This document shows, in pieces, positions 7,107 to 34,348 of a stretch of 64,000 bases of DNA. Position 1 is the first letter of the stretch, and each line of letters starts with the position of its first letter. A program made the translations under genes and the position numbers. Source of the stretch: a plasmid; the sequence record NZ_CP085281.1. One strand, 5' to 3'. Below the pieces are notes generated by a model, which had not been told where the DNA came from, did not search any database, and saw nothing but the letters and a program-made list of their open reading frames with translations.

Positions 7107-7120
7107 AGCTGCTCTCCCGA

Positions 7121-10820: not shown

Positions 10821-12983
10821 TCAGCCGGCCTTCTTCCAGCCGCCGGCACCGGTGTCCTCGGCTTCAGCCACCAAATCTTCGCCGACCAGGTAGACCGTCG
10901 GCTTACCGGCGATGCCGTTGTGCTCGACGTGTACGCACCGCAGGTGCGAACCCATCGGCAGAATCACCTCGTCCTCACCGGAGAAGTTGGAGATGCTCTT
11001 GACCGGCAACCCCTCCCGGGTGCGCACGACCATGTAGTACGGCGGATGCCCGGCGAACGCCGAGGCCGTTGACTGCTTGGTGGTCGTGCTGGTCACCTTC
11101 CCTACTTCCATGCGAGCACCGACACTGAACACCGCGTCGATGTACTCCGCCGGCGTTCCCTTCCACCCGCTGGGCACCCTCGTCCCGCGCACCACCGTCA
11201 TCGGAGACATGTTCGGGTTGTTCTCGCGGAACTTGTCGAACGCCGACTCGATCCCGGAGACCACCGTCTTGATCGACCCCGAGGGCTTGGCACCGTCACG
11301 CCCGCAGATCGCCGCGTTGATCGCGGTGTAACTGCCGCCGGTGTACGTCGTCAACGCCGAACGCTCCTTGCTGTCGAGCGCCTTCTGCACGAACGCCGCA
11401 TTCGCCGCCGTCAGCTCACTGATGCTCGACGTCTGGACCCCCGGGCCGCTGGTGTTGAAGCCCCACGCCTTGAGGTTGCCCGCCCGCTGGCCGATCACCG
11501 CATAGTCCTCGGCGGTCTCTTTGCCCCACGCGCGGATGCCGCTGCGCCACAACGCTTTGTGCTTGTCCGCACCGAGGCTGTCGGGTGGGATTTTGTGGTC
11601 GAAGTGCGGGATGACCCCGCCACCACGGGTCAATGTGCCCAGCGCGCGCCGATGTGCCGCCGCGTAGGCCTCCTGGGCGGCCGCGGCTCCCTTGCCCGCC
11701 GCCAGGGCCTCGGCGCGGGCGGCCTCGCCGGCGGCCACGGCCGCCTTCTCCCGCACAAGCTTCTTGTGCCGCTTGGTCGCGTCGTAGATGTCGGCGCGCA
11801 CCGGTCCTGCGCCCACGGCCTCGACGAGCTTCTCGCGGGCCTCCCCCATCTTGTCGTCGATGAACTTCTGGTGCTGCTCGGCGTTCCAATGATGTTCTGC
11901 GGCTTGGCCTGCCAGCTGCAACAGCACCTGAGACTTGATGTGGTGGGCCTGAGCCTCGGTGTCGGTGGCGCCCTCGGCAAGTGGGGGCAGCTCGGCCATC
12001 ATGGGCATGCGGTTGGCCTTGTTGAGCGCCGCGGACTTCCCGCCGGCAGCGGCCACGCCGTGGTAAACCCCGTCGCGCTTCTGCAGGATGAGGAAGTCGC
12101 CGGATCCGCGGCGGTGGATCGCCGTCCCACCGTCGAGCAGACGCCCCTCGACTTCGACGGCCCCCGATCCGGTCTCCATCAGGAACTTGCCGGGGGTGTA
12201 GACGGAGGTGTCGCGCACCGCCCCGGCCAACAGCGCCGGCTGCGGCCCCGCATCCAGCGCCCCGGCAGCCTCGGCCGCCACCGACCGGTTCAACGACCGC
12301 GCCAACGCCTCGACGTCCTCGGCACTGAGGTTGGCGCAGTACGCGTCGCGCTCCTCTCCGGGCAGCGTGGTGGCCACCCCGTACTTCGCCGCGACCACGT
12401 CATCGGCTGCCATCGGGACGGCGAGCTTGGCCTGCTCATAGGCCGCCTTGGCCGCGTCGATCTCCTCACCGGCTTGCGCAAGCTGCGTGAGCTGCTCGCC
12501 CGTCAGCGAGTCCCCTTCGGCCGAGCCGAACTCCTTGACCAGCTTGCGGCGCCGCGCCTGGGCCCGCTGCACGGCCTTACGGCCGTCGTCGACGGCCTTC
12601 TCCGCCGCGGCGAGCGCCTCCTGCGCCTGCTCCAGAGCGTGCTCCTCCGGGGAGATCTGCGGGCCGGCCAGTGCGGCCTGCTCGGCCTTGGCCGCGGCGA
12701 TCAGCAGCCCCGCCGAGGGAGGGTTGGAGTGGGTACTGGGCATGGGGGTGTCACCGAGCACCGACTCCTCGATGCCCATCGCCTTCATGAATTCCGGTAG
12801 GACGCTCGGGGGTGCGGCCAGGATCGCCTTCGCGGTGGCGACCAGGCCTTGCTCGGTGAGGTGATCGACCACCTTCTTGCGGGCCAGCCGGCCCAGCCGC
12901 CGATTGCCGTTCGCCTTGGCCGCGGCGCCATAGCTTCCGCAGCCGGGGCAACGCCGGCCACCATGTTGGGTCGATCGGCACAC
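10821..12983 (-). CDS. Multidomain putative toxin: N-terminal Cys domain, Ala-rich coiled-coil, C-terminal mono-ADP-ribosyltransferase domain (R-S-E clade)
   Basis: The C-terminal ~170 aa carry YTGGSYTAINAAI (alpha-3 motif), a catalytic Arg (VVRGTRV), an STS-like motif (STTTKQS) and the ARTT loop FSGEDEVILPMGS. The loop parallels iota Ia FAGEYEMLLP and C3 GEYEVLL. The N-terminal 90 aa are paralogous to the N-terminus of 9030-9800. Confidence 0.7.
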   Translation of the reverse strand: MCRSTQHGGRRCPGCGSYGAAAKANGNRRLGRLARKKVVDHLTEQGLVATAKAILAAPPSVLPEFMKAMGIEESVLGDTPMPSTHSNPPSAGLLIAAAKAEQAALAGPQISPEEHALEQAQEALAAAEKAVDDGRKAVQRAQARRRKLVKEFGSAEGDSLTGEQLTQLAQAGEEIDAAKAAYEQAKLAVPMAADDVVAAKYGVATTLPGEERDAYCANLSAEDVEALARSLNRSVAAEAAGALDAGPQPALLAGAVRDTSVYTPGKFLMETGSGAVEVEGRLLDGGTAIHRRGSGDFLILQKRDGVYHGVAAAGGKSAALNKANRMPMMAELPPLAEGATDTEAQAHHIKSQVLLQLAGQAAEHHWNAEQHQKFIDDKMGEAREKLVEAVGAGPVRADIYDATKRHKKLVREKAAVAAGEAARAEALAAGKGAAAAQEAYAAAHRRALGTLTRGGGVIPHFDHKIPPDSLGADKHKALWRSGIRAWGKETAEDYAVIGQRAGNLKAWGFNTSGPGVQTSSISELTAANAAFVQKALDSKERSALTTYTGGSYTAINAAICGRDGAKPSGSIKTVVSGIESAFDKFRENNPNMSPMTVVRGTRVPSGWKGTPAEYIDAVFSVGARMEVGKVTSTTTKQSTASAFAGHPPYYMVVRTREGLPVKSISNFSGEDEVILPMGSHLRCVHVEHNGIAGKPTVYLVGEDLVAEAEDTGAGGWKKAG

Positions 12984-17625: not shown

Positions 17626-18108
17626 CTACTTCACGTCGGTCACGACGATCGGGAGCCAGTTGCGCACCGACACCGACCATTTGCCCTCCTGGACGAGGTC
17701 GGCCAGCTCCTGGCACTGCTCGTCGGTGGTGACGTCCCAGCCTTGCCCGATCACATTGACCGGGCCGCGCACACCCGCACGCCAATCGAGCACGGAGTAC
17801 TCCAAGGCGCCGCGCCGCCGAAACGGCGCCTGTCGGGTGAGCACGACGACGTCCTGCCCGGCCACCGCCCGTATCGTCCACCACCCCCGCTCGGCGTCGA
17901 GCCTGACCCGCTGACCGACTGCCATGGCCACCGGCGTCATCGGCTCGACCTGGTAGTACCGGCGCTGCTGCGATCGTTCGGCATTGGTGAGCGTGTCCGT
18001 AGTGGTCATGACCGTGCCTCCTGAACTGTGGTGGATGCTCCTACCTGGTAAGTACCGCCGCGGGCGGGCGTTTCCGTCATTGCGGACGGATATTGATCCC
18101 AGGTCCAC
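17626..18108 (-). CDS. hypothetical protein
   Basis: ORF only. The likely start is the internal MTTTDTL. Confidence 0.3.
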   Translation of the reverse strand: MDLGSISVRNDGNARPRRYLPGRSIHHSSGGTVMTTTDTLTNAERSQQRRYYQVEPMTPVAMAVGQRVRLDAERGWWTIRAVAGQDVVVLTRQAPFRRRGALEYSVLDWRAGVRGPVNVIGQGWDVTTDEQCQELADLVQEGKWSVSVRNWLPIVVTDVK

Positions 18109-18592
18109 CCGTCCAGGACTCGCCCGGCGCGATGCTTGCCGACGCGGACAGCGATCGTGTCGCGGTCGAGTAGCACGGTGTTGGTGGTGCGCTCGCCCAC
18201 CTCCATCAGCCGCTCATGCCCGCCCCGCAGGGTGGTTGCCCCCGGCGCGGGCACGCGGATCACCGGCGAGCGCCGGCCTCCCAGGGGGTGGTCGTAGGCG
18301 CGCCCGAAGCGGAAGTCCTCGTCATCGGTGACCGCGACGGGCAGGTACTCACCGAATTGCTTGAAGTAGAACGCGATGCCTGCTTGCACGCATTCGTCGC
18401 GGATGCCGCGCACCCAGTCCGGATGCAGGGGGCGTGCCTGGGGGCCCGATTCGCCGCCGGCGATGACCCAGTGCAGCACCTCCCGCACGTTCAGACGTTG
18501 CCCGTCCCAGGTCGGATGATCTTGTGGTGGCGTCCATTTCCGCAGAGCCTGACGCAACGCGACGTATTCGAGCAACGGCTCCATCGACAGGT
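18006..18592 (-). pseudogene. Gp37/Gp68 (DUF5131) gene, C-terminal fragment
   Basis: YLSMEPLLEY ... WVIAGGESGPQARPLHPDWVRGIRDECVQAGIAFYFKQFG is the conserved C-terminal half of phage Gp37/Gp68. The N-terminal half lies at 26116-26703. Confidence 0.7.
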
Positions 18593-18638
18593 AGCTTCTC
18601 CGAACTTCCCGAGTCGGGCTCGGGACGATGTTCTGGGT

Positions 18639-18875
18639 TCACGTACGCCCCGGAGGTTCCTCCGTGTGCCGGGCACCAGGGAGCCCAAGTGTGACAATCT
18701 TCTGCATTCTCTGCAGCTTCTGCTCGGCTGCCGCAATACTAATTGCAAGCCCTTCTATTTCACCGAGCCATCCTTGTGCCTTCGCTTCTTTTGTGCGCTC
18801 TTGGAGATTGTCGATTATTTCGATCAGTCGACTCTGCTGGGCTGGGTCCGGCTGAAGCATCGCGCAGCGGATGCA
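18639..18875 (-). pseudogene. Displaced 3' end of element A tnpB (zinc-ribbon tail)
   Basis: ACIRCAMLQPDPAQQSRLIEIIDNLQERTKEAKAQGWLGEIEGL is homologous to the C-terminus of the intact paralog (ACVRCSLLRPDPAQRPRLEEIRSNLEDRIEEAKLHGWLGEVEGL). It continues the frame of 22653-24833. Confidence 0.6.
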
Positions 18876-18913
18876 AGCTTCTCTGAACTTAGCTGGGGCA
18901 CTTAGCGATCCGT

Positions 18914-21376
18914 TCATCGTGGCCGCGCATTTGTTGGTAGGGAGGGGGTTCCGAGGTCGACCGCGAGGCGACGGCTCGTGTCGATCTGAGTGAGTTTGTC
19001 TTTCACCCCGGCGAGGCTGACTTGGAGTCCCTCGACTTCGCCGAGCCAGCCGTGAAGTTTGGCCTCCTCGATTCGGTCCTCGAGGTTGCTGCGGATCTCT
19101 TCCAGGCGTGGTCGTTGCGCTGGGTCCGGCCGGAGAAGCGAACATCGGACGCAAGCGTGCTCGTGAAAACACGGCGTTCCAAACGCGCGGCCGCACGTCC
19201 CGACCGACACCTTGCGCTTCTCGAAGTGGGCGAGGAAGTCGTCCCACTCGTCCTCGGTCGGGGTCCGGTACTCCTCGCTGGGTCGGGTTGCCCGTCGGCG
19301 AGCGATGAACGCTCGGTGGGCTTCGATCGCTTCCATGGGGTAGACGGCTTTGTATCCCATGGTTGTGTCAATTGTCTTGTGCCCGCAGATGATTTGGGCG
19401 ATGTGCGGTGGTAGCCCGCTCATGATTGCGTCGGTGACGAAGATCCTTCTGAAGTCGTGGGGCGAGAAAATCAGCGGTTCGCCGGTGGCGTCGGTGAGCC
19501 CGCTGGCGGCGAGTGCGTCGATGAGCAGTTTGCGGATCGCACTGGGTGTGAAGGGGCGGTGCTCGTTGCCGATGGCGCGTTGGAACAGCAGCGGCATCGG
19601 CGGGTTCCAGACTCGCTCTCGGGTGTCGTAGGACGGCACCAGGGGTATCGCACCGCTTGGTGCGCGGAGGCGGGTGATGATGGCGCTGAGCACGTCGGCG
19701 AGTTCGGGGCTGACGAGCAGCAGGCGTTCGGTGTCGGTCTTGGAGGGGGCGATCTGCAGCAGCGGCACCACTTCGCCGCTGGAGGGCAGGCGGTATTCGG
19801 TGATGCTGTGGTGGCTGAGTTCAAGCAGTTCCTCACAGCGGATGCCGGTCAGTCGCAATACTTCAATCGTCGCGAACGCCCAGAACGCCTCGTCGTCCTC
19901 GTAGGACAGGTTGCGCCGTTTGCCCGTGGCCGTGTCGTCGGCCCAGACGTGGCGGCCTATGGCTTTGGGGACGTGCGCTTTCCGTAATTTGGCGTCGGTG
20001 CCGGGGATCAGGGTTCCAGACACCGTCTGGTCAGCGGCCTGCAAGAACTGTTGTGCGGTGCGGCGGCGCTCGTTCGCGGTGCGCACCAGCACCGGCAGCA
20101 CAGGCAGTCGTTCGCGGGTGCGCTGGTCCATCCGAGCCTTGCGGTGTTTGCGTTCCTTGGCTCGTCGGATCTCGGCGTCGCCAATCGGGCAGGGAGCCGC
20201 CCACCGGGCCCATCGGGCGGGATCGTCGACGGCCCATTGAGCGATGTCGAGGTAGAACGCTCGCACCCGGAGTAGTTCGTCTTTGGCGTTGAGTCGCGGG
20301 GTTGCGACCTCGATCTGCTCACCGGCGGCGTTGGTGATCGTTCGCTTCTTGGTGGCCAGGTCGTCCTTCCAGGTCCGGATGACGTCCTGGGGCAGCTGCA
20401 GGGTGTCGATGCCCGGTGCGATGGCTTCGATGCGGGCCCAGAACAGCCCGGCCAGGCTGCGGGAGATCGCGTCGATGCTGGCGAAGTCCAGCGACGGCTG
20501 ACGTTCCCGCAGGTAGTCGACAAGCAGGTCGCGAATGGGTCGGCAACGCAACGGATATCGATCCACTAATTCTTCGATCGTGAGTCGCCCGGTGGCTTGC
20601 CCGAATGCGCGAATCGTGTGCGGCGCATCGTCGGGGAAGATGCCAATCGCACGCAGGCGTAGGTAGAAGTCGACCTTCTTTTGTCCGCCGCGAGCGTGTA
20701 CCTGGCGCAGGGTGTCGACCAGTTCGACACAGTCGCCGACAGTGATGTCGGCGACACGTCCGCCCTTGCACGCGAGGATGGTCGCGATCCTGGTCGCCGC
20801 GACCCGCGCGTCGACGGCGGAGCTGGCCGGTTGGGTCTCGGCGAGTCGCCGCAGCTGGGCGAACCCTTGCGGGTCTCTGATGTGCGCCATCGCACCGGCC
20901 AGCCGGGCGTGGGTGCGGGTAAGCATCCACGGCACACCCGGACGGATGACGTCGCCGCAGATCAACACGAGCAGGCCCGAGGCCAGATCGTCGACGTCGT
21001 ACGACGCGTCCTGACCGCGCTCCTGCAGCCACCTCAGTGAGAGCCCGGTCCAGGTCTTGCCGGGATGCTGCTCGACGCCACTGAGTTCCCAACGCTGTTG
21101 CCAGGTGTCGCCCGGAAACGTCGCCAGCCAGTCCAGCAGCTTGGTCACACCGCGTCGTCGACCCGCCTGGGTCCCCTTGACATCCGAGGTAAACAATCCG
21201 GAGGTCAGCCTGACCATGGTGTCCTGGGCGGTTCCGGCCGTGGCTGCCCCACAATGCTCGGGCTGACGGGCGGGGAACCGTTCGCGCAGCTGCTTGTTCC
21301 GCCCGCTGATCTGAGTCTTGGTCGCATTCGCCACGGCAAGTGGTTTGCGCGCAACGTGTTTGGCGATCGTGGTCAC
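18914..21376 (-). CDS. Large tyrosine recombinase (TnpB-like) of element B
   Basis: Catalytic SPHDFRR, HKTIDTTMGY and a terminal Tyr. C-terminal Cys/His tail (GTCGRAFGTPCFHEHACVRC). A GTG start overlaps the tnpA stop (ATGTGA). The annotated 990-aa ORF's N-terminal extension is rejected. Confidence 0.7.
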   Translation of the reverse strand: MTTIAKHVARKPLAVANATKTQISGRNKQLRERFPARQPEHCGAATAGTAQDTMVRLTSGLFTSDVKGTQAGRRRGVTKLLDWLATFPGDTWQQRWELSGVEQHPGKTWTGLSLRWLQERGQDASYDVDDLASGLLVLICGDVIRPGVPWMLTRTHARLAGAMAHIRDPQGFAQLRRLAETQPASSAVDARVAATRIATILACKGGRVADITVGDCVELVDTLRQVHARGGQKKVDFYLRLRAIGIFPDDAPHTIRAFGQATGRLTIEELVDRYPLRCRPIRDLLVDYLRERQPSLDFASIDAISRSLAGLFWARIEAIAPGIDTLQLPQDVIRTWKDDLATKKRTITNAAGEQIEVATPRLNAKDELLRVRAFYLDIAQWAVDDPARWARWAAPCPIGDAEIRRAKERKHRKARMDQRTRERLPVLPVLVRTANERRRTAQQFLQAADQTVSGTLIPGTDAKLRKAHVPKAIGRHVWADDTATGKRRNLSYEDDEAFWAFATIEVLRLTGIRCEELLELSHHSITEYRLPSSGEVVPLLQIAPSKTDTERLLLVSPELADVLSAIITRLRAPSGAIPLVPSYDTRERVWNPPMPLLFQRAIGNEHRPFTPSAIRKLLIDALAASGLTDATGEPLIFSPHDFRRIFVTDAIMSGLPPHIAQIICGHKTIDTTMGYKAVYPMEAIEAHRAFIARRRATRPSEEYRTPTEDEWDDFLAHFEKRKVSVGTCGRAFGTPCFHEHACVRCSLLRPDPAQRPRLEEIRSNLEDRIEEAKLHGWLGEVEGLQVSLAGVKDKLTQIDTSRRLAVDLGTPSLPTNARPR

Positions 21377-22626
21377 ATCGACCTCCCGAACAGGACGCTC
21401 AGCGACTGCGGGTCGTAGCCCGGCGCCGGCGGCGGTGGAACCGGATCTTCGCGCCGCGCCGCTTGCCGCGCGTGGTGAGCCAGCACACTCGCTACGACCT
21501 CCTCTTTGGAGGGCGTCAAATACAACTCGGTGGTGGTCAAGTGGGCGTGGCCCATCACCCACTGCACGTCGCTCAACGTCATCTGCGGATCCCGCGCCAT
21601 CCGCATCGCGGCGCTGTGCCGCAGGTCGTGCAACGTCCAATCCGAGCCCAGGCAGGCATTGGCCCGCTCGAACATCCTGTGCGCGGCGTGATAGGTCAGC
21701 GGACGGTGTGGTCGGCGTAGTGTCCACCACAGCGGCCGGGTCCGGCCACGCGGCAACTTGGCCTGCAGGTCTTGCTGATACAGGCGGAGCCACACAAATG
21801 CGTCCGCCGCCGCGGGCAGTTGCTGTATGGCGCGGGAACCCTTGCGCACCACGGTGATCAGTTGTTGGCCTGGGTCGACATCGCACTGGCGAACCCCCAG
21901 CAGCTCGGACGCGCGGGCTCCCGTTGAGATCCAGAATGCAACCATTGCTCGGTCCCGATTCGACGGCAGCGCGGTGAACAGCGTGTTGAACCGATCGTCG
22001 GGTATCGCCCGCGGAATCCGCTGCGGCATTTTGGGGCGATAGCGCCCTACACGGTCGTGCTTCCAGGCCTCCATCGGGTTGTGGTGGGCATTCGCCCGCT
22101 CCGACCGACGTGCGATATCGAGGGGAAACGGATTCAAGATCGGTCCGGCACCGAGGTCACGCTGGAAGTCGTAGAAGCCGCGTAGCACCGTCTCGCTGTG
22201 AGCGATCGTCGCCGGGGCATACCCGGGGCCGAGGGCGGCCTTGCCCGTTACGGGGTTCGGCGGCCCAACCGACTCCACGGTTGCAACCACTTGGTCCGAC
22301 GATGGCCTTCTCCGGTGTTTGACCGTCAGCTGAATCCAACAGCTGAAATCGCGCGCTTCGATCCGCGTCGCGCGGCGCCAATCGACATCGACCGCGCCGA
22401 GGAATCTCCACCACCGCAGCAAGTCCATGCCGTAGGAACGCAGCGTCGCTGGAGAACGCCCAGCCGCGAGCAGCTCCCGTAGAAACGCGGCCACTGATTC
22501 CACGACGGCGCCCTCGGCGTCGATCAACCGGTAAGGCTCACCCAGATCGCCGGTTGAGGCGAGCTCCCCACAGCGAGAAACAACAAGACGGGCTACATCC
22601 CTGGTTTGTACTGGCTCTTGGTTCAT
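21373..22626 (-). CDS. Small tyrosine recombinase (TnpA-like) of element B
   Basis: 417 aa with a phage-integrase catalytic domain (R ... HDLRHSAAMRM ... GHAHLTTTELY). Confidence 0.75.
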   Translation of the reverse strand: MNQEPVQTRDVARLVVSRCGELASTGDLGEPYRLIDAEGAVVESVAAFLRELLAAGRSPATLRSYGMDLLRWWRFLGAVDVDWRRATRIEARDFSCWIQLTVKHRRRPSSDQVVATVESVGPPNPVTGKAALGPGYAPATIAHSETVLRGFYDFQRDLGAGPILNPFPLDIARRSERANAHHNPMEAWKHDRVGRYRPKMPQRIPRAIPDDRFNTLFTALPSNRDRAMVAFWISTGARASELLGVRQCDVDPGQQLITVVRKGSRAIQQLPAAADAFVWLRLYQQDLQAKLPRGRTRPLWWTLRRPHRPLTYHAAHRMFERANACLGSDWTLHDLRHSAAMRMARDPQMTLSDVQWVMGHAHLTTTELYLTPSKEEVVASVLAHHARQAARREDPVPPPPAPGYDPQSLSVLFGRSM

Positions 22627-22652
22627 GGCCGAAAGCTATCGGGGCCGGCGCA

Positions 22653-24833
22653 TTACGCCGCGCCACGCCACGCGGCTGGGCCAGTTAGTTCAGTCAACGG
22701 TGCGTGTTCGTGTGCGCAAGGAGTGCCGTAAGCGCGGCCGCAGACTCCCAATTCGACTTTCCTCTTGGTGAAATGTTGATGGAATTCATCGAGTTCATCT
22801 TCGGTTGGCTCTCGATACTCTTCGGATGGCCGCATGGATCGTCTGCTCTCAACGAACTTGCGGTAGTGGTTAATGACGTCTTCTTGGTAAATCGCTGTGT
22901 AGCCCTGGGTTGTGTTGATGTTCTCGTGACCCATGAGCCTCGCGAGGATGTGCACGGGCAGCCCGCCCGCCAGCGCGTCTGTCGCAAACACTCGCCTGAA
23001 GTCATGCGGCGACACCTTCAGGGGCTGTCCCGCCGCGTCGGTCAGGCCGCTCTGCGTGATCGCGTTCGAGATCATCGTGGTCATGTGGCCGGCGGACATT
23101 ATTCGCCTCTGGGTCCCGTGAACACGCTGGAATAGATAGGGCAACGGCACCGTGGTCACTCGCTCGTAGGGGTCGTACCGTGGAACGCAGGGAACTTGGG
23201 CGCTGCCAGCCCGCACACGGTGGCGGACTTGAGCCAGGACGTGGGCCAGTTCGGGGGGCACCATCAAGATGCGTTCCTTGTCGGACTTCGATGGGGCGAT
23301 CTGTAGTAGCGGGATCACGCCTCCGTCTGGTAGCCGATAGGTGAAGAGGGCAGTCGCGGTGATCTCCGAAAGTTCCTCCAGCCGAACTCCGGTGTAGTAG
23401 AACGTGTTGACGACCGCCCACGTCCAGAACGCAAGATCCTCGGATCGATCGAGGTCAACGCGTTCACCGGTATCAACTTTCGTGGCCCAGGTTCGTCCGG
23501 TCGGCTTATAGGACCCCATACTGGCGGAGGTGAGTTCAGTTCGTTCGTAGACATTGCCATCGAAGGTGAACCGCTGTCCCGCTGAATGTCTCAGCGCCAA
23601 CGCTAAGAAGTCGCGCTGGGACTGGCGCTGCTCATCGACGGCGGCGAGCAACTTCGGCATCGCAGGCAAGATCTGCCGGGTCTTTTGCTGCAGTCGGGCC
23701 TGGACCTGGCGCTTGTGCTTAGCCGCTCCGCGTGTGTCATCACGCGTGAGGAAACACGGTGCAGCCCAATGAGCCCATTCTGCATCTTGGGTAGCCCAGT
23801 GCGCGATGTCGAGGTAGAACGCTCTGACCGCGATGAGCATTGGGTACGGATCCGTGCCGGCTGCATGGTTAGCCTGCTTCCACCGACGACCGACCTCTGC
23901 CGGCAGAGCGAAGGTCGTTAGCCCAGGATTCTCGTCCTGGATCACTCTCCAAAACCGTCCGCAGAGCTTGTAGGCAAGTGAGCGCAGCGTCACGTAGTCC
24001 GTCACTGCCGCCCGCTCGTGGAGGTACCGGACGAAGACGTCCCGTTGTGGTTGCGCGATCTCGTAGAAGTCAACCATCTCTTCAACGGTGTACTGCCCTC
24101 GGCGGGCGATCTGGCGCAGCGGAAGAGCGTCCGCTGGGATGGCTCCGTGCATCTGAAGCAGATCCCAGGCGTAGTCGACCCCGTCGTTCTTCCCCTTCGT
24201 GCGCAGAATCTCCTGGCGGTAGAACAGGACATCATCTGCCTTCAGGTCTCGAATAGCCTTGCCGGTAAACAGCATCATCCGCTCAATCGCTGTCACAGCC
24301 TGGTGGAATTGCCTTGAAGCGGTTCCTTTTTCATCGTCGAAAGTCTTGGCCTTCGTATAGAAGTCGGGATCCCTGAGCTTGCCGGCGACTGTCGGTGCTG
24401 TGTTGAGCCTCGCGAACCTGAGCCAGTAGTAGGACGGTCGGATCGCGTCGAGGATCAGCAGTACGCCCACAGCAATCTTGGATTCCTGGGACTGTGAGAC
24501 GGCGGACAGATGGCTCCACGGATCTCCCAATCGCTGCATCCAGTCGGCGCCCTCCTCGTCACAGCCGGCATTAATCCACCGCTGCTGCCAAGAGTCTCCT
24601 TCGAAGGCCTGCAACGCAACGCAGAGTACGCGTAGCCCACGCTTCACCGTATCCGGGCGGGCCTTGTGAATCGGAAGCCGAAGAGCTTGCTCAGTTAGGC
24701 TGTCCACATCCAATCTGGTTGCAGGCCAGCTTGTGTCACGGCGAGGCGGCATGACGGCGGCTCTCATACCCAGTGGTACGGGGGCCTGCGGAGCGACGGG
24801 CCCGATCGCGGGTGCGGCGCCAAGTCTCGTCAC
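22653..24833 (-). pseudogene. Large tyrosine recombinase (TnpB-like) of element A, 3'-truncated by the insertion of element B
   Basis: Paralog of 18914-21376. Ends ...GTPCAHEHA then runs into element B sequence. The GTG start overlaps the tnpA(A) stop (caGTGA at 24830-24833). Confidence 0.65.
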
Positions 24834-26056
24834 TGTGCACCGCCGAACAGCTCGTCCATGTCGGCCGCCGAGTAATCCGCGGCGAGGGTGGCCGAGATTG
24901 CGCTGTCGATCTGCGGGCCCGCAGCCATTCGCTCTCTGAGCCACTTGTAGTGGGTTTGGGCATGAGTGAAGACGTCGGCTTCTCTAGGCCGGAGGTACTT
25001 CTGGGTCGTTACGAGCGACGAATGCCCGAGAATCGTCTGAATATCGGTGAGGGTCATGTTCGGGTCCTCCTGCATCCGCATCGCTGCGGTGTGGCGCAAA
25101 TCGTGCAGCGACCAGTTGGCCCCGAGTGTGTCGTTGACGCGACGCAGGACTGCTCTCAACGCGTCGTATCCGAGTGGTCGATAGGGTTTGCGAATGGTCC
25201 ACCACGCCATCGACTCTGGTTGCGTCAGTTCCGTCGGCAGGGTCGCTTGGTAGAGGTTGAACCAGACAAAAGCGTCAGGCGATGCTGGGATACGCTGCAA
25301 CACGCGAGTGCCCTTCCTCAGGACCGTTATCGTCTGCTCGTCCCACCGCACCATCCCGTTAGTGAGGCCGAGCAGCTCAGCTGGCCGGGCAGCACTTGAT
25401 AGGTAGAAGGCGATCAGCGCACGGTCGCGATGAGACGAGAGGCCACGAAACACATTGTCTACGTCTGCGTCTGAGAGATGGCGTGGTGTCAGTGATGGGG
25501 CCTTCTGGCGGTAGTCGCCGCGCCGCTCCGTAGGGAGCAGGCGCATCGGGTTGTGGTGAGCTGCATAGCGGTCACCGTCGCGAGCCACCCTGGTCGGCAC
25601 TGGGTTCACCAACGGCCCCGTTCGTGCGTGCACGTGGAAGTCGTAGAACGCGGCCACCACCGAAAGGTTGTGATTGATGGTGGTGGGCGCGTAACCGTCG
25701 CCCGCGTACCGTTTTCCCGTCACCGAATTCACAGAGCCTGGAATGTGCTTCTTGGCGACGCGACGACGGTACTTGACGGCAACCTTCATCCACGCCACGA
25801 AATCTCGCACATCCTCGCGTGTGGCCGCCGCCCATGGACGATCGATATGCCAGAGAAAGCGAAACCAGCGGAGTAGCGCCTGGGAATACGACTTCGCGCT
25901 TGAATTGCTGTTATCGCGAATTGTGAAATCGAGCAGGAACTCACTGCAGCATTGAACCGCATCGCCGGAACCGTCGAGCACAATCCAGGAAGGGATCCCG
26001 CTCGGCTGAGCGATTATTCGACCAATCCTACAAATTTCGTATATCGGCATTGGCAA
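24830..26056 (-). CDS. Small tyrosine recombinase (TnpA-like) of element A
   Basis: 408 aa. HDLRHTAAMRM ... GHSSLVTTQKY. Paralog of 21373-22626. Confidence 0.75.
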   Translation of the reverse strand: MPMPIYEICRIGRIIAQPSGIPSWIVLDGSGDAVQCCSEFLLDFTIRDNSNSSAKSYSQALLRWFRFLWHIDRPWAAATREDVRDFVAWMKVAVKYRRRVAKKHIPGSVNSVTGKRYAGDGYAPTTINHNLSVVAAFYDFHVHARTGPLVNPVPTRVARDGDRYAAHHNPMRLLPTERRGDYRQKAPSLTPRHLSDADVDNVFRGLSSHRDRALIAFYLSSAARPAELLGLTNGMVRWDEQTITVLRKGTRVLQRIPASPDAFVWFNLYQATLPTELTQPESMAWWTIRKPYRPLGYDALRAVLRRVNDTLGANWSLHDLRHTAAMRMQEDPNMTLTDIQTILGHSSLVTTQKYLRPREADVFTHAQTHYKWLRERMAAGPQIDSAISATLAADYSAADMDELFGGAQ

Positions 26057-26115
26057 TTGGTCCTTCCGTGCGGCGAGAGAAGCCGACTCCAGTCGACCAG
26101 CCTCAGGCCCCTTCG

Positions 26116-26703
26116 CTAAGCCGACACACCGGTAGTTCGGTCAACATGTCGAACGGCGGCCGGAGTGTCCAGCAGCGCCGGGATCCGCCTGTCGGCCCAG
26201 TACTGACTCTCCACGCTGACACCCAGCCACACGTTCGGCAGAAACCCCTGCAGTTGCCCGTGATTGGGCCAGTACTGCTCGCGTGACGGCCGCTGCGCCA
26301 TGACGTGCTCACCGAAATCGGTGACCGCCGCCCAGAACCGAGCACTCCTGAGCAGGGAGCGCATCCGACCGTGCCGCTTGGTCAACACCTGAAAGGTGTG
26401 GGTGGCGCAGCTCTGCATCACCGCGAACACGTGCGCGATGTACTCGTCGGGCACCTTCTCGTGGAACAAGTCACCGGTGGAACACACGAACACCTTGCGC
26501 GGCGCCCGCCAACGCATCGGCTGATCGAGCCGCTCCGGCCACAACGTGACATCAAACCCGTTGGGCCACGCCTTGGTTCCCGCAAATCGGCGAGCATTCC
26601 TGGCGGCGTAGCAGTTGTCGCATCCCGGCGAGATTGGGGTGCACCCGGTGACCACCGGCCACGTCGAATTGGTCCATTCGATCTTGCTGCGAGCCCCCAT
26701 CAC
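26116..26703 (-). pseudogene. Gp37/Gp68 (DUF5131) gene, N-terminal fragment
   Basis: SKIEWTNSTWPVVTGCTPISPGCDNCYAARNARR is the hallmark N-terminus. The frame ends 8 codons into element A. Confidence 0.7.
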
Positions 26704-28215: not shown

Positions 28216-28482
28216 CGGCAATCCTCTCCTGGAGTTGCTGCAGATCGTAACGCCAGATTCCGCGCACTCATGGGCTCGCTGCCTGCGAGTTTCACGGCAC
28301 AAGGGCCATTGTTTTCCACCTACGGTGACTATTTGCGGCTTGGGCTGGCCGAGTCGCACCGCCACACCAGCGGCGATGCCACGTCCCCCGACTCCGACCG
28401 AACTGATCGACCGCCTGAACCGCCCGACGGCGCCCGAGGCGCTTCGTGAGTAGGGGAACGCTGAGGGACGGAGCGCGGCGGC

Positions 28483-29877
28483 CTACCGCACCGAGGTGCG
28501 GTGCAGCCGCGGATGGGTGGGATCGTCGTTGTCGATCACGAAGTCTGCGCTCTGGAGCGGGTTGATCTCGTCGATGTACATGTGCGATGCCGCGTGATAG
28601 CGCTGGGCGTATCGCTGCTCGGCCGCCGCATGTCCACCGAATTGTGCTGCGTCACGGTTGATTCCCCGTCGCAAGGCTTCATCGAAGCTGGTGTTGACGA
28701 CGACCACGACATCCCAACTGCTGCGATGGTGACGTTGCATGAAGCTGCCATCGGCGATCAGGATGCTCTCCGGAGCGGCGCGCTCGGGGGGTTCGTCGAT
28801 GACGGTGTCCGAGGCGAGGTCGATGACGCGGCGGCTGAACAGGCGATCGCCGCCGGGGCTGAGGGGCTGCAGGACGCGCTCATTGAGTGCTTCGAAGTCG
28901 TAGGCGTCGTCGTAGTAGCCCCGGGCGGAGTCTTTGCCCTGGCGGTAGCGGTGCTCACGGCGGTGGTGGAAATCGTCCATCCGGATCCGGACTACCGGGT
29001 GGCCTCGCTCGGCGATCGCCTCGGCCAGCTCGTCGGCGAGGGTCGTCTTGCCTGAGGCGGTGATGCCGTCGATGGCCACCCGCAGCGGGTGCGCGGATTG
29101 CCGTTCGATCAGCAATCCGGCCAAGCTGCGCAGCACGTCGGCGCGTGCCGCGCGGTCGTCACTGGTGGCGGCGTAGAGCAGCGAGTCCCGCCAGGTCCCG
29201 CGTTTGAGGCGATGGCTGCGCATGCGGCCTTCGAAGAGCAGGCCTGCCTTCTGCAGCACCTTCGCCGAACCGTGGTTGTCGGGATCGCATGTGGCGCTGA
29301 TTCTGCGGAGGCCCAGGTGGTCGAACCCGAACCGCAAGAGAAGGCGCGCGGCTTCGGTGGCGATCCCTCTTCCCCAGAACTCTGGATGGACGATGTAGCC
29401 GATCTCGGCTCGCCGGTGCTCGGCGCTGGTCACCGACAGCACGGCGCCGCCGACGAGCGTCTTCGATGCGATGTCGACGATCGCGAGGTCGAAGACGGTG
29501 CGAGGAGTTCGGCCCGCTTGCTCGGCCGCGCGCCGCAGGAAGCTGCGGGTGTCCTCGATGCTGTTGGGTCCCCATTCCAGGAATCGGGTGACCACGGGGT
29601 CGCAGGCGTAGGACTGCACGCCGTCCAGGTCGGCATCGTCGAACTCGCGCAGGATCAGGGTGTCGCCGACCAGTTCGGTTCCGGCATCGCTCGTATGACC
29701 ATGCGTACCCGGCACGGGCTTGCCGTCCGGGCTCTCTATGGGCGGCGGACGGTGGGCACCCGGTGACCCTGCAAGCGCTCCTTGGCGACGTCGGCCTTCT
29801 TGCTGTCCTGCAGGATCAGCCGGACTAGTTGAGCGCGAGCGTCGGCGTTGAAGGGGTCGTCGTGCAGTTCGTCGCAC
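28483..29877 (-). CDS. GNAT N-acetyltransferase fused to a P-loop nucleoside/nucleotide-kinase-like domain
   Basis: The N-terminal part is RimJ/RimL-like GNAT (EIGYIVHPEFWGRGIATEAARLLLRFGFDHLGLRRISATCDPDNHGSAKVLQKAGLLFEG). The C-terminal part has Walker A (AIDGITASGKTTLADE). The start is probably internal; the first ~55 aa are Arg-rich. Confidence 0.6.
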   Translation of the reverse strand: MRRTARRPLQRRRSRSTSPADPAGQQEGRRRQGALAGSPGAHRPPPIESPDGKPVPGTHGHTSDAGTELVGDTLILREFDDADLDGVQSYACDPVVTRFLEWGPNSIEDTRSFLRRAAEQAGRTPRTVFDLAIVDIASKTLVGGAVLSVTSAEHRRAEIGYIVHPEFWGRGIATEAARLLLRFGFDHLGLRRISATCDPDNHGSAKVLQKAGLLFEGRMRSHRLKRGTWRDSLLYAATSDDRAARADVLRSLAGLLIERQSAHPLRVAIDGITASGKTTLADELAEAIAERGHPVVRIRMDDFHHRREHRYRQGKDSARGYYDDAYDFEALNERVLQPLSPGGDRLFSRRVIDLASDTVIDEPPERAAPESILIADGSFMQRHHRSSWDVVVVVNTSFDEALRRGINRDAAQFGGHAAAEQRYAQRYHAASHMYIDEINPLQSADFVIDNDDPTHPRLHRTSVR

Positions 29878-30035
29878 GCGATCTTCAACTCGCGGGAGTA
29901 GCTCCGGACCAGGGCGAGGTCAGAGTCGGCCGTGGGGAGGGGAATGCACGTCCCGATTGTCCTGAGGTCGCGGTGCGATGCTGCTGTCAGTGATGGGTGC
30001 GGCGACTTACTGACCATGACGTCGTTTATAGCCAT
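29736..30035 (-). CDS. small acidic protein with IACDELHDDP motif, a paralog of 55893-56147
   Basis: Its KIACDELHDDPFNADARAQLVRLIL aligns with RIACDELHDDPTDVDARWTLLALL of the paralog 55893-56147. Confidence 0.3.
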   Translation of the reverse strand: MAINDVMVSKSPHPSLTAASHRDLRTIGTCIPLPTADSDLALVRSYSRELKIACDELHDDPFNADARAQLVRLILQDSKKADVAKERLQGHRVPTVRRP

Positions 30036-30120
30036 AAATTTTCGACGGTGCAATGTGTACCCATGTAAATATGGCAGGCTGATTACGTGCTTGACGCCCG
30101 TCCAATCTCGCCCGGCAGAC
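30000..30120. promoter_or_regulatory. AT-rich divergent intergenic region with a near-palindrome CCATGTAAATATGG (30061-30074)
   Basis: Local AT enrichment in a ~67% GC background, between divergent genes. A TTGACG hexamer sits at 30091. Confidence 0.25.
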
Positions 30121-30214
30121 CCCGATGCAGTCCTTCTACCTGCAACGATAGCGGAACAGGACCCTGTAGTAACATCAGTACACGACCGGGCCCGACACGT
30201 GAAACGAGAGTACT

Positions 30215-30670
30215 TTGAGCGAATCGACGCCCGACACCGCACAACCCTCCGAGCTGTCGATCAAGCTCAACAAGCTCTTCGAAACCATGCGCAAACCCTC
30301 GCAGCCACCGCTGTCCAACGCCGCGGCCGCCGAGGCCATCACCCGCAAAACCGGCGTGTCCATCAGCGCGGCCTACCTCTGGCAGCTACGCCAGGGCATG
30401 AAGAACAACCCCACCGTCGCCCACCTGCGCGCGATCGCCGAATTCTTCGGCGTCACCCCCTCCTACCTGATCGACCCCGGTATCGACCCCAAGATCGACG
30501 AGCAGCTCAACCTGCTGGCTGCCCTGCGCGACGCCGGCGTGCGCGACCTCGCGATGCGGGCCAGCGGCCTCACCCCCCAAGCCATCAGCAGCCTGCGCGC
30601 TATGGTCGATCATGCGCGGCAACTCGAGCAATTGCCGCCTGTGGACGTGGCCGGGGGCAGGGAGCCGTAA
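30215..30670 (+). CDS. XRE-family HTH transcriptional regulator
   Basis: HTH_3-like AAEAITRKTGVSISAAYLWQLRQG. A TTG or internal ATG start. Confidence 0.65.
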   Translation: MSESTPDTAQPSELSIKLNKLFETMRKPSQPPLSNAAAAEAITRKTGVSISAAYLWQLRQGMKNNPTVAHLRAIAEFFGVTPSYLIDPGIDPKIDEQLNLLAALRDAGVRDLAMRASGLTPQAISSLRAMVDHARQLEQLPPVDVAGGREP

Positions 30671-31171
30671 ATGGCGATCTCGAATGAAGACATGCTCGCG
30701 ATGGCTCGCGAGCTGCCCATTCCTGTCCCCTGGGACAGGGACCTGTTCATCCAGAACATCGCCGAGATGCGCGGCCGCCCCATCACCCTGATCCCCACCG
30801 AGACCGCCGCCCTGGCCGACAGCCCCTGCGGCCTGTGGCTCACCCGCGACGACGACGACCTGATCCTGCATGAAATCGGCACCTCCGAGTACCACATCGA
30901 CCAGATCGTCTGCCACGAGATCGGCCACATGGTGCTCGGCCATGGACGCACCCGCGCCTTCGGCGCCGACCGCGACCGCGAGATTGAGATGTGCCGCCTG
31001 GTCATGCCCGACATCGACCCCGCAGCGGTCAACGCCGTCCTAGGCCGCACCGACTTCGCCAGCGACCAGGAACGCGACGCCGAGATGTTCGCCAGCATCC
31101 TGATGATCGCGGCCGCCGAACGTGCCGACCACCAGTCGATGATGCGCAGCGTGTTCTTCCGGTCGAGGTGA
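30671..31171 (+). CDS. ImmA/IrrE-family (DUF955) zinc metallopeptidase
   Basis: HEIGHMVLGH is an HExxH motif. Begins 1 nt after the xre stop. Confidence 0.7.
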   Translation: MAISNEDMLAMARELPIPVPWDRDLFIQNIAEMRGRPITLIPTETAALADSPCGLWLTRDDDDLILHEIGTSEYHIDQIVCHEIGHMVLGHGRTRAFGADRDREIEMCRLVMPDIDPAAVNAVLGRTDFASDQERDAEMFASILMIAAAERADHQSMMRSVFFRSR

Positions 31172-32361
31172 CCACCTCAGTCCCGGCCTACCTCACCTGG
31201 CCGCTACTGGTCTTCATGGTCATCGTCGTCGCCACCCGCTACCTGTTCTTCAACAGCAGCGCCTACGAGACCTACCTCAACCACACCCTCGCGCTCATGG
31301 TGGCCTCCAACCTGCTGCGCGAACACGCCATCGAAACCGCCCTCGCCGACCGCGGCATCCTGTCGATCACTGCCGCCCAACAGCTTTCACTGGCAGTCAT
31401 GATCTTCGCCGCCGCCGAGTTCCTGGGCTTCGTCACCCTCTGGTCGGCCCTGTCGCCGGAACACACGCGCCGGCGACACCGCTACCACCGCGCGGCCGCC
31501 GCCGCACTGGCCGTCGGATTCCTGCTGGCCGCCACTCCCGCCCGCCGCGCCGGCCAAACCCTCGAAGAGTTCGGCGGTTGGTCCAGCGTCCTGGCCTGGG
31601 CCCTGCTGACGAGCATCTTCATCGCCCTGGCCTACCGGCTGCTGCGCATGGCGATCAACGAACTGCTGCGACCCGACGCCAAACCCCGCGAACGCCTCCT
31701 GGCCGCCGGCGGCTTCGTCATCGGCATCGCCGTCGGCAGCACCAGCATCGACGCCGTCATCCTCTCCGCCCTCCAACAACTCGGCTGGCTCGACACCGTC
31801 GCCTTCCGCCTGAACCTGCACGGCTCCAACATCTTCTGGGAAACCGTCGGCGTCAGCATCATCGCCGCCGTCCCGGCCGCCAAGGCCCTCACCGCACGCA
31901 TCGGCCTCGACGCCACCAGCCGACACTGGCGCCAGCTGCAACCCCTACGCGCCGCCATGACCGACGCCGTTCCGGCCAGCGCATTCGAACTGCGCCACCC
32001 CAACACCCGCCGCCAGAAGACCCCGCTGGACCTGCACCAAACCACCGTCCAGATCCGCGACGCGATCCTCCAACTACGCGGCTACTTCCACGACGTCGCA
32101 CCCAACCAGGCCGCCCTGTTCGTGCAGCGCTACTCGATCCCCGCCAGCCAGCGCGACACCGCCCTTGCCGCCTTACAACTGGCCAACGCCGTCCACACCA
32201 AAGCCGCCGGCGCCACACCTACACCGGTCGACAGCACGGTCATCCTGCAGTCCCGATCGACCAACCTCGAACAGGAAACCGCCGAACTGCTACGCCTGGC
32301 CCGATGGTGGCCCCACGCCCTCCAAGACGCCCACCCCAGCACCAACGAGATGAGCGAATAA
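31168..32361 (+). CDS. polytopic membrane protein
   Basis: Several hydrophobic helices. The GTG start overlaps the ImmA-like stop (GGTGA). The upstream part of the 456-aa ORF is rejected. Confidence 0.5.
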   Translation: MTTSVPAYLTWPLLVFMVIVVATRYLFFNSSAYETYLNHTLALMVASNLLREHAIETALADRGILSITAAQQLSLAVMIFAAAEFLGFVTLWSALSPEHTRRRHRYHRAAAAALAVGFLLAATPARRAGQTLEEFGGWSSVLAWALLTSIFIALAYRLLRMAINELLRPDAKPRERLLAAGGFVIGIAVGSTSIDAVILSALQQLGWLDTVAFRLNLHGSNIFWETVGVSIIAAVPAAKALTARIGLDATSRHWRQLQPLRAAMTDAVPASAFELRHPNTRRQKTPLDLHQTTVQIRDAILQLRGYFHDVAPNQAALFVQRYSIPASQRDTALAALQLANAVHTKAAGATPTPVDSTVILQSRSTNLEQETAELLRLARWWPHALQDAHPSTNEMSE

Positions 32362-32363
32362 CC

Positions 32364-33767
32364 ATGCCCACCAACACTTCCACCGCACTACCGCACCCCC
32401 GCTGGCGCCTGCCTATCGTCGGCGACCTGCTCACCATCGACCTCGCCAAACCCTGCCAAGGGCTAGCCAAGGACAACGTCGCCCGCGGCGGCATCGTCGA
32501 ACAACGCATCTTCAACGTCCCGGTCATCGTCTTGTCCGACGCCGGCCTCATCGACGACGTCAACAACGAAGCCGCCTGGGAAAAGCACGTCGGCCACTCC
32601 CTGCGCAAACTGCGCCCCGTAGCCGGGGACGGCCTGTTCACCGCCTACAACCACGAACCCAACTGGAGCAAGGCCCACAACATCCTCATGCCCGCCTTCA
32701 CCAAGGCGGCCATGGAGTCCTACCACCCCACCATGACCGCCACCGTGCGCGAACTCACCGACACCTGGACCACCCGCGCCGCCGACAACTCCTGGATCGA
32801 CATCCCCGCCGAGGCCAATCGACTCACCACCGAGATCGTCGCCCGCGCCGGCATCGGCCACTCCTTCAACAAGCTCGACGACACCAGCGAAGACCCCTTC
32901 ATCACCACCGTCCTGCGCGAGCTCAAATACGCCAACCGCCGCACCGACGCGATCCCGTTCTACGAGAAGTTCTTCGGGCAGGCCCAGCGCCGCCAACACC
33001 AGCAGGACAAGGTCTGGCTGCGCGAGCAGGTCGCCTCCATCATCAACGACCGCCGCAACGCCGGCCCTCACACCGGTCCCCGCGACATGCTCGACTACAT
33101 GCTCAACAGCGCCGACCCCGACAGCGGTGAGCACCTCGACGACGCCAACATCACCAACCAGATCCTCACCCTGCTCGTCGCCGGCAGCGAAACCTCAGCC
33201 AACGCCATCGGATTCGCCCTGCACTTCCTCGCCCACCACCCCGACGTCGCCGCGGCCGCCCGCGCCGAGATCGACCAACGTTGGCCCGGCCGCGACTTCC
33301 CCGACATCGCCTTCGACGACGTCGCCCGTCTGCGCTACCTACGCCGCGTCGTTGACGAGACACTGCGCCTGTGGCCCGTGGCGCCCGGCTACTTCCGCCA
33401 AGCCAAGACCGACACCACCATCGGCGACGGCAAGTACCACTTCGCTACCGGCGACTGGGTTTTCGTCCTCCTCCTGGCCGCCCACCGCGACCCCAACACC
33501 TGGGGCCCCGACGCCGACCAGTTCCGCCCCGACCGCTTCCTGCCCGAGAACCTGCGCAGCCTGCCCCGCTACGTCTACAAGCCGTTCGGCACGGGTGCCC
33601 GCGCCTGCATCGGCCGCCAGTTCGCACTCCACGAAATCATGCTCACCCTGGCCGCCGTCCTGCACCAGTTCGACCTGCAACCCGAACCCGGCTACACCCT
33701 GAAGGTCTCTGAAACCCTCACACTCAAACCCGACGCACTGCGCCTACGGCTACAACCGCGCCGATAG
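32364..33767 (+). CDS. cytochrome P450, CYP102 (BM3 heme-domain)-like, stand-alone
   Basis: Heme loop FGTGARACIGRQFA and the ExxR region (VVDETLRLWP). AGDGLFTAYNHEPNWSKAHNILMPAF parallels BM3 [26 protein letters not shown]. Confidence 0.85.
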   Translation: MPTNTSTALPHPRWRLPIVGDLLTIDLAKPCQGLAKDNVARGGIVEQRIFNVPVIVLSDAGLIDDVNNEAAWEKHVGHSLRKLRPVAGDGLFTAYNHEPNWSKAHNILMPAFTKAAMESYHPTMTATVRELTDTWTTRAADNSWIDIPAEANRLTTEIVARAGIGHSFNKLDDTSEDPFITTVLRELKYANRRTDAIPFYEKFFGQAQRRQHQQDKVWLREQVASIINDRRNAGPHTGPRDMLDYMLNSADPDSGEHLDDANITNQILTLLVAGSETSANAIGFALHFLAHHPDVAAAARAEIDQRWPGRDFPDIAFDDVARLRYLRRVVDETLRLWPVAPGYFRQAKTDTTIGDGKYHFATGDWVFVLLLAAHRDPNTWGPDADQFRPDRFLPENLRSLPRYVYKPFGTGARACIGRQFALHEIMLTLAAVLHQFDLQPEPGYTLKVSETLTLKPDALRLRLQPRR

Positions 33768-33790
33768 CCTCAGTACTCGCGCACCAAGTC

Positions 33791-34108: not shown

Positions 34109-34348
34109 CCCCCACTCATCACGGATGGGTGACGACGGGCATACAAAGATCGACCTCCTGCTGATGCGACTCCCGAAACCATTGCCTCACAGCGATATTC
34201 CGCCGCAGTCATCCCGGGTCGGAGCCACCCTCGGGGACAGCAACCGTGAACACGCCGTCGGTGGGTAGATCGTCGCGATCTAACACGAAGAGGTCGCAGG
34301 AGCAGCCCTCGCCAGCCCACATGGGGCACAGCTCGGCCCGGCACTGAC

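Follow-up and report, generated by a model that had tools for sequence, protein, structure and literature searches.

How a single phage-type gene on a large plasmid of Mycobacterium avium subsp. hominissuis came to lie in two pieces, with four tyrosine recombinase genes between them, is the question raised by the locus described here. The window, 64,000 nucleotides (nt) of sequence record NZ_CP085281.1, contains this gene, a member of the DUF5131 (phage Gp37/Gp68) family, and every feature of the nested locus lies on the minus strand. The two gene pieces are separated by two elements, A and B, and B sits within tnpB(A), the large recombinase gene of A. Our explanation is that A inserted precisely into the DUF5131 gene, that B inserted into tnpB(A) at a kind of site to which its lineage is dedicated, and that insertion would proceed through a circle junction. 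We give this reading as a whole a probability of about 75%.

The break in the DUF5131 gene had already been noticed in the first-pass annotation. The 5' part of the gene (26703 to 26150) matched positions 2-158 of the 243-position Pfam profile (E 1.8e-54), the 3' part (18594 to 18006), which opens with the target tetranucleotide CTAC (18594-18591), matched positions 160-243 (E 1.1e-27), and the profile continued straight over the break. As judged from homologs, the gene starts with the ATG at 26700, and the final target base ahead of the insertion of element A is the G at 26150. Joining 26151 to 18595 restored the junction AAVRYLSMEPLL, which is the same in all close homologs, and the reconstructed protein was 94%, 83%, and 80% identical to intact homologs of 379 amino acids (aa). 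A metagenome contig (L001) that is 91-93% identical to both flanks contains the empty site GCCGCCGTGCG-CTAC-CTGTCG, and homology to it breaks between 26150 and 26149. In the window, the left junction reads ...GTTCG-ACAT-GTTGACCGAAC... and the right junction ...GTTCGGAGAAG-CTAC-CTGTCG. The gene is also intact in p1-JPH1, a related M. avium plasmid (83% identical, PLSDB). Only one base (G) is ambiguous at this insertion and no target was duplicated; the DUF5131 gene is inactivated by the insertion.

Element A (3,730 bp, ACAT-GTTGAC...GAGAAG) is itself in two segments, 26149 to 22703 and 18877 to 18595. The left segment comprises, in order, a 4-nt spacer, X (ACAT, 26149-26146); the left end GTTGACCGAACT (26145-26134), which has its subterminal repeat arm CCGAACTACCGGTGT; tnpA(A), encoding 408 aa (26056-24830); and the beginning of tnpB(A), from a GTG start codon at 24833 as far as 22703. 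The right segment supplies the remainder of tnpB(A) (18877-18639), coding for a Cys/His motif and C-terminal helices, and finishes with the right end AGTTCGGAGAAG (18606-18595). Between them lies the complete element B (3,825 bp, 22702 to 18878, CACC-GTTGAC...GAGAAG), in which open reading frames (ORFs) and Pfam matches delimit tnpA(B) (22626-21373, 417 aa) and tnpB(B) (21376-18914, 820 aa, GTG start at 21376); its spacer X is CACC (22702-22699), its left end GTTGACTGAACT (22698-22687), and its right end AGTTCAGAGAAG (18889-18878). A copy of B that is 100% identical over 3,829 bp is present in the Mycobacterium parascrofulaceum scaffold NZ_GG770554 (L003, 4675-8503), and because the flanks of that copy are unrelated, the bounds of B are fixed.

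B entered tnpB(A) where the Ala codon meets the Cys codon in the conserved C..C.HEHAC..C motif, and it severed the last ~80 residues of the protein. As had been described earlier, tnpB(A) stops after ...GTPCAHEHA and its tail is found 3.8 kb away. After rejoining, TnpB(A) has 789 aa and aligns without gaps to TnpB(B) (...CFHEHACVRCSLLRPDPAQ) across HEHA/CIRC and HEHACVRC, respectively (here and below, a slash within a motif marks the insertion point). The predicted empty site, CACGAACACG-CTTG-CATCCG, agrees with the intact tnpB of an A-like element at another locus (L084, CACGAACACGCTTGCATCCGA). Two bases (GC) are common to both junctions of B, and there is no further target duplication. Thus the nested-insertion reconstruction is confirmed by the intact DUF5131 homologs together with the intact A-like tnpB. 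The first-pass annotation was right that insertion was precise and free of target duplication, with only 1-2 bases common to the junctions in the comparisons with L001 and L003. It was also right that deletion restores both frames and yields HEHACIRC, although at the DUF5131 junction a Tyr residue stands where His (AAVRHLSM) had been read.

The ends of the two units are conserved. The 11-mers GTTGAC(C/T)GAAC and GTTC(G/A)GAGAAG each occur twice in the window, counting both strands, and these occurrences fall at the four predicted ends. The left-end motif proposed earlier was sound in its GTTGAC(C/T)GAAC core and wrong in the last G of its consensus, where A reads GAACTACCGGT. The proposed unit end, GAGAAGCT, had to be corrected, since the L001 and L003 junctions place the end at GAGAAG and shift the boundaries by 2-4 nt; the CT that follows GAGAAG is target DNA (the L001 empty site reads GCG/CTAC/CTG, and CC follows the L003 copy of B). 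Inverted repeats, which had been reported as absent, are present in imperfect subterminal form, with 12 of 15 positions matching in A (CCGAACTACCGGTGT and CCGAACTTCCCGAGT) and 13 of 14 in B. The differences between the repeats of A and B (C/T, G/A) are compensatory, giving CCGAAC/GTTCGG in A and CTGAAC/GTTCAG in B. If the ends of B were joined head to tail, two inverted arms of roughly 12 bp (AGTTCAGAGAAG and GTTGACTGAACT) would flank the 4-nt spacer X.

B has suffered no disruption and exactly matches a copy in a second species; it was probably active recently. tnpA(A) is intact as well; tnpB(A), cut by B, lacks the Cys/His motif and the C-terminal helices, so that A is probably without a complete large recombinase of its own and hence non-autonomous. 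A truncated TnpB(A) identical over the aligned region (P0121, 653 aa, 100%) is encoded on a 215-kb plasmid of M. avium subsp. hominissuis, and this best protein match assigns the window to such a plasmid. B may have joined A in situ, after A had inserted, or the composite A::B may have come in already formed. The latter history, in which the composite formed once elsewhere and the window records a single insertion event, is the best surviving alternative to our reading, and we regard it as unlikely. The ends of A and B are similar enough that the enzymes of B might act on those of A in trans, and no uninterrupted copy of A above 76% identity was found. However, the repeat arms differ by the compensatory changes described above, B occurs alone and identical in L003, and the G+C content of A (about 0.59-0.62) is unlike that of B (0.65-0.67; flanks 0.68-0.72). 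In addition, insertion of B into tnpB(A) is required under either order. No additional copy or fragment of A or B was found elsewhere in the 64-kb window.

The specificity of B was assessed at loci from the 80 best matches to TnpB(B), a sample biased towards B relatives. Because the longest ORF or the GC content at third codon positions is often misleading at high G+C, the frame across rejoined flanks was taken from both lists and confirmed with Pfam. B-like insertions lay at the same Cys/His-motif codons of recombinase genes in 18 of 19 resolvable cases, in both orientations, and their hosts ranged from Mycobacterium to Streptomyces. Forward insertions at HEHA/C (...CA(C/T)GA(A/G)CACG/C.TGC...) were found in L004, L006, L012, L014, L015, L018, and L023 as well as in the window, and reverse insertions in L010, L011, L013, L016, L019, L020, and L021. 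The insertions in L003 and L009 occupy the equivalent CPHANA/CLTC position of a Tn554-type recombinase gene, that in L024 the equivalent codons of a third recombinase type, and L017 is the sole exception. Rejoining the flanks restored ...CKHEH/ACIRC... and similar motifs. The interrupted outer genes are not A-like (about 31-83% identity to TnpB(B)), indicating that the nestings are independent events, and orphan tails beginning at residues 737-741 occur in plasmid records.

The L003 case extends the range of victims. There, the gene split by the identical copy of B encodes a large recombinase of the Tn554 type (...GYCGLPVQQSCPHANA/CLTCPMF...), the split falls at the equivalent codons, and a TnpC-like ORF follows the gene (8716-9069; 29% identity to Tn558 TnpC, E 1.9e-9), implying that B-type elements also attack three-gene, TnpC-containing actinobacterial relatives of Tn554. 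As judged from these junctions, the normal target of the B lineage is exactly the HEHA/C site in the large-recombinase genes of related elements. The first-pass annotation had correctly placed the target of the inner unit in the outer tnpB; its suggestion of relaxed target choice gives way to a dedicated one, since a single site accounts for 18 of the 19 insertions. The target is partly palindromic (A.GC..GC.T), a feature that would explain insertion in both orientations. Recurrent homing into the recombinase gene of the element's own family, or into the genes of other transposases, seems not to have been described before in the searchable literature.

Two further observations concern the B-like elements themselves. 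The Ala codon of their own HEHAC motif is mostly GCT, GCA, or GCG, and GCC is found in 3 of 23, whereas GCC-TGC, which corresponds to the preferred target ACG/CCTG/C, is the commonest form in other lineages. This bias may reflect partial avoidance of self-targeting, with the reservation that the counts ignore phylogeny; the HEHAC codons of B itself, GCT TGC, equal the site used in A. Furthermore, several B-like elements measure 4.3-6.2 kb instead of 3.8 kb (L006, L010, L013, L016, L018, L020, L023, and L024), and the extra DNA sits between tnpB and the right end. In L010 it includes a 219-aa ORF (8850-9509), which we take, from its sequence, to be methyltransferase-like. The family can carry cargo.

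Over 50 two-ended insertions the termini were conserved as X4-GTTGACTGAAC... and ...AGTTCAGAGAA(G/T). X and the final base vary by lineage and in step, a spacer of CCCC or CACC being paired with G and one of ACCT or GCCT with T. Each lineage kept its X constant (11 insertions had CCCC, 19 had ACCT, and 3 had CACC), and X differs from the usual target bases of the B lineage (CCCC as against CCTG/CAGG); in one insertion only did the target tetranucleotide equal X. Being lineage-constant and unlike the usual target, X looks like DNA of the element and not like the footprint of a previous site. For the same 50 insertions, the putative circle junction, read as the right end followed by X, was aligned with the target, read as the left flank followed by the target bases. 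The two were identical in 88% of cases at position -1 and in 68% at +1, compared with 41% and 31% for permuted pairs, and the observed identity was reached by 0 of 5,000 permutations. All other positions, including +2, were at background. X always adjoined tnpA and the target bases always lay at the tnpB-distal end; the reverse was never seen.

These data bear on a second alternative, that the elements move exactly like Tn554 and the strand-biased circularizing elements (SEs), with a few bases of donor flank picked up by the circle and left behind at the next site; X would then be the footprint of the previous site. Both proteins are homologous to TnpA and TnpB of Tn554, insertion is polar and duplication-free, X does not belong to the target sequence where A entered DUF5131, and a 6-bp carry-over has been published for Tn554 relatives and SEs (PMC10214605). 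The constancy of X within lineages, in which it is never the usual target tetranucleotide, is difficult to reconcile with such a footprint, and the polarity is opposite to that of SEs, as the target bases lie here at the recombinase-distal end. We therefore consider exact Tn554- or SE-like movement improbable.

Instead, we infer from the sequences a circle, roles for TnpA and TnpB, and a course of strand exchange as follows. The element would excise as a circle with the junction AGTTCAGAGAAG-X(4 nt)-GTTGACTGAACT, and a TnpA/TnpB complex would recombine this junction with a target having 1-3 bases in common with it; in the B lineage these would be G/CC, in A.GC..GC.T-like sites. The first strand exchange would pair only the first 1-3 bases (G/CC or T/AC), the remaining spacer being non-homologous. 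A single strand polarity would enter the product, keeping X beside tnpA and the target bases at the tnpB-distal end. This could occur if exchange of a single (top) strand were completed by replication, or if the reaction were strongly strand-biased; either route would give a polar outcome without duplication.

A candidate for the predicted circle junction was found in a metagenome contig (L090, Ga0307406_10317929, 1,203 nt), in which GTTCAGAGAAG-CCCT-GTTGACTGAAC is followed by a B-like tnpA (83% identity); it represents either that junction or a head-to-tail tandem. The other nine of the 10 right-end/left-end junction matches in metagenome contigs were rejected as chance palindromes, low in G+C, unrelated, and without a recombinase. 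No terminal overlap was detected in the ~3.7-3.9-kb metagenome contigs tested as circles. Several contigs of this size have GAGAA(G) as their very last bases or GTTGAC as their first, which fits repeat-induced assembly breaks and is no proof of circles. Assembly contigs L033, L067, L075, and L086 similarly start or stop exactly at element ends, suggesting multicopy elements that break assemblies. L086 (Logan DRR317412, 3,728 nt) consists of one whole A-like unit, from CGATGT-GTTGACCGAAC to GGTTCGGAGAAG.

Several points weigh against the explanation offered here. The circle rests on one metagenome junction that a head-to-tail tandem explains equally well. The insertion of A has a single base (G) in common with its own junction. 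Tyrosine recombinases usually have an overlap of 6-8 bp, and a spacer of 4 nt falls short of that; the true cleavage points may be displaced outward by 1 nt at both ends. Flank carry-over in the style of Tn554 was not seen, but conserved targets would mask it. Finally, the target frequencies were drawn from the biased sample of best TnpB(B) matches.

Targets of other lineages were recovered by deleting X and the element and matching the restored ORFs against Pfam. In this sample, which favors relatives of B, most of the identified targets are genes of mobile elements. Transposase genes restored in this way were of the Tn3 (L026), DDE_Tnp_1 (L057), IS5 (L043), and IS110 (L038) types. Fixed motifs were used in the Tn3, IS5, and group II intron genes (L026, L043, and L051), in ISAs1-like transposase genes (L057 and L034), in IS110 genes (L038 and L040), and in IS21-like istA genes, where insertions fell at H/YGF (L049, L068, L080, and L081; rve plus Mu-transpos_C_2 restored in L049, L081, and L082). 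A group II intron reverse transcriptase gene (L051), AAA_22 ATPase genes (L036 and L042), genes for a WhiB protein (L070), a T2SSE ATPase (L062), and an ABC ATPase (L064), and, in two independent insertions, Ku genes (L035 and L069) were also restored. A second hot spot lies within the family's own tnpB, after PSKTD(A/T)ERL (PSKTDxERL/L; L029, L037 at 4625-8410, and L041); the lineage nested there has X = ACCT/GCCT and the right end GAGAAT. In the representative library, fragmentary proteins commonly terminate around residues 554-558 and 739-747. A common target of the A lineage was not revealed among the A-like relatives L084, L085, and L086: L084 is rearranged and abuts a DUF932 gene, and L085 has X = ATTT.

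This diversity of targets might be taken to mean that target choice is relaxed, that B landed in tnpB(A) by chance, and that the nesting involves no specificity; A itself sits in an unrelated gene with 1 nt of identity to its own junction. Such a landing is very improbable and already largely refuted, because the resolvable B-like insertions share one Ala/Cys boundary in both orientations and across genera, and the identical copy of B in L003 holds the equivalent position of a different recombinase gene. An assembly artifact, or a rearrangement by homologous recombination between recombinase paralogs, has nothing specific in its favor beyond the tendency of repeated elements to break assemblies and can practically be set aside, given that both interrupted frames are restored to the base, that the same truncated TnpB(A) recurs in P0121, and that A and B have diverged too far to recombine by homology. 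Whether the class as a whole is a large guild of compact transposons, in which every lineage would have its own short, conserved coding motif as target, for the most part within genes of other mobile elements, and would insert by polar and probably single-strand recombination over 1-3 nt, with the B lineage as a hyperparasite of its own family, is in our view an evenly balanced question.

The four recombinase genes all match Pfam Phage_integrase (E 7e-16, 6e-14, 7e-18, and 8e-10) and, as the first-pass annotation had it, form two small-plus-large pairs (408 + 789 aa in rejoined A, 417 + 820 aa in B) that overlap as GTGA (caGTGA in A, atGTGA in B). A and B are not sister copies, as had been suggested; with 42% identity between the TnpA proteins, 39% between the TnpB proteins, and DNA that aligns in patches only, they are best described as distant members of one class (about 40% protein identity). 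The catalytic residues of tyrosine recombinases, R...H-x-x-R...H...Y, are kept in both proteins: R514, H641, R644, H667, and Y676 were invariant in an alignment of 22 TnpB sequences, and both TnpA proteins have the motifs GARASEL, HDLRH, and GH..TT..Y. An AlphaFold model of TnpB(B) had a mean predicted local distance difference test (pLDDT) score of 77, falling below 50 at residues 669-708 and 714-738, stretches that take in the catalytic Tyr together with the beginning of the Cys/His motif. The model predicts an ordinary two-domain recombinase fold with a long helical N-terminal region, its best matches being XerH, Cre, and Tn1549 Int, and contributes a generic recombinase fold only.

In BLASTP searches against Tn558, TnpA was 19% identical (E 6e-12) and TnpB 22% identical (E 2e-12, residues 470-799), the latter including the C-terminal Cys/His motif (CPHANAC in Tn558, CFHEHAC here). 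The earlier label of Tn554-like thus stands as distant homology of both proteins and falls as regards the supposed lack of inverted repeats. The absence of a tnpC-like gene, also claimed earlier, was upheld by a tblastn search of the window with Tn558 TnpC, which gave no hit (best E 4.0), and only 38-90 nt of each unit lie outside its two genes. A class of adjacent, co-directional short (~350-420 aa) and abnormally long (611-828 aa) recombinase genes without TnpC, found on actinobacterial plasmids and including identical copies in different replicons, was defined in silico by Van Houdt et al. (2012; Mob DNA 3:6; PMC3414803) from protein clusters alone; ends, targets, nesting, and polarity are absent from that work. 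Its Table 2 lists Arthrobacter sp. FB24 plasmid 1 as a TnpC-less Famint41/36 pair, and a gene of this plasmid (NC_008537) is 38.7% identical to TnpB(B) over 90% of the query (E 8e-134). By their sequences, A and B are new members of this known actinobacterial, Tn554-related class, and the occurrence of B in M. parascrofulaceum parallels the identical copies reported. Among 1.84 billion representatives searched, 1,041 clusters at 50% identity matched with E <= 1e-30, and relatives were encoded in 592 of 600 candidate genome stretches. Full-text literature searches found no later paper giving ends, targets, or nesting for this class.

With the Tn554 family of Staphylococcus and Enterococcus (Tn554, Tn558, Tn6674, and others), A and B have in common the tnpA-tnpB order, distant protein homology, the absence of target duplication, imperfect terminal repeats, and a conserved coding motif as target. 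They differ in lacking cargo and TnpC (DUF6262), a protein that Tn554 transposition either requires or is stimulated by, in their ends and targets (DUF5131, tnpB), in a TnpB that is about 170 residues longer at the N terminus, and in showing a lineage-constant X and no evidence of flank carry-over, in place of insertion at att554 in radC with its 6-bp core. On pY8P168P-cfr (L083), Tn558 splits a radC/JAB gene close to its HNHPS codons (1780-1960 and 8330-8520), and insertion into a conserved coding motif seems to be a trait that A and B share with the classical Tn554 family. By inspection, unaligned, the AT-rich ends of Tn558 in L083 have no obvious resemblance to those of A and B. A review-like paper of 2023 lists Tn554 relatives from Staphylococcus and Enterococcus only and leaves their pathway unresolved (PMC10214605).

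The SE/GInt elements resemble A and B in their site preference and their polar, duplication-free outcome (PMC10214605). However, they need four proteins, including Tfp/GinC and Srap/GinD, and leave a 6-bp donor fingerprint, whereas A and B manage with two genes in 3.7-3.8 kb; in addition, the polarity is reversed and sequence similarity is undetectable. RIT elements have three recombinases and long terminal repeats, as opposed to two recombinases and imperfect subterminal repeats of ~14-15 bp. Classical integrative elements, such as phages and integrative and conjugative elements, use an identical core of at least 6-8 bp, in contrast to the common bases G in A and GC in B. A similar strategy of preferential insertion into other mobile elements is known from the "Res hunters" of the Tn5053/Tn402 family. 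Those are DDE transposons that recognize a resolvase-res complex, whereas the elements described here use tyrosine recombinases, which would recognize short coding motifs, one of them in the recombinase gene of their own family.

The window contains further mobile and plasmid functions. An apparently intact IS21-like element (50665-53030) has an istA gene (519 aa, rve plus Mu-transpos_C_2) overlapping istB (269 aa; IstB_IS21, E 5e-60). Two IS605/IS1341-type TnpB ORFs, with OrfB_IS605 and Cas12f-like TNB domains, lie at 34929-36458 on the minus strand and 57474-58727 on the plus strand, and the region around the first (~34969-37024) is insertion-like, having no counterpart in L001. About 5.9 kb at ~28389-34244, including a GNAT acetyltransferase/kinase fusion ORF (28483-29877), also has no counterpart in L001 and is an indel between the related plasmids. 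An FtsK/SpoIIIE-family protein of 1,392 aa (1343-5521, minus strand) and a protein of 720 aa that has an ADP-ribosyltransferase toxin domain at its C terminus (10821-12983, minus strand) represent predicted plasmid transfer/secretion and toxin functions near the locus.

Elements of the Tn554 type spread antibiotic resistance in staphylococci and enterococci, and their transposition pathway is still unresolved (PMC10214605). The actinobacterial relatives have only two genes, are smaller, lack TnpC, and are abundant; here, empty sites occur naturally, the ends are defined, and the 10-bp target can be predicted. Such compact relatives would make duplication-free transposition by two tyrosine recombinases directly testable, and their lineage-specific targets would provide a natural panel for asking which part of the proteins reads the target. 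In annotations of actinobacterial genomes, it could become possible to account for truncated "integrase" ORFs and orphan tails of ~80 aa and to join them again. The entry of such elements into transposase genes, those of their own family among them, would be a clear case of mobile elements parasitizing mobile elements.

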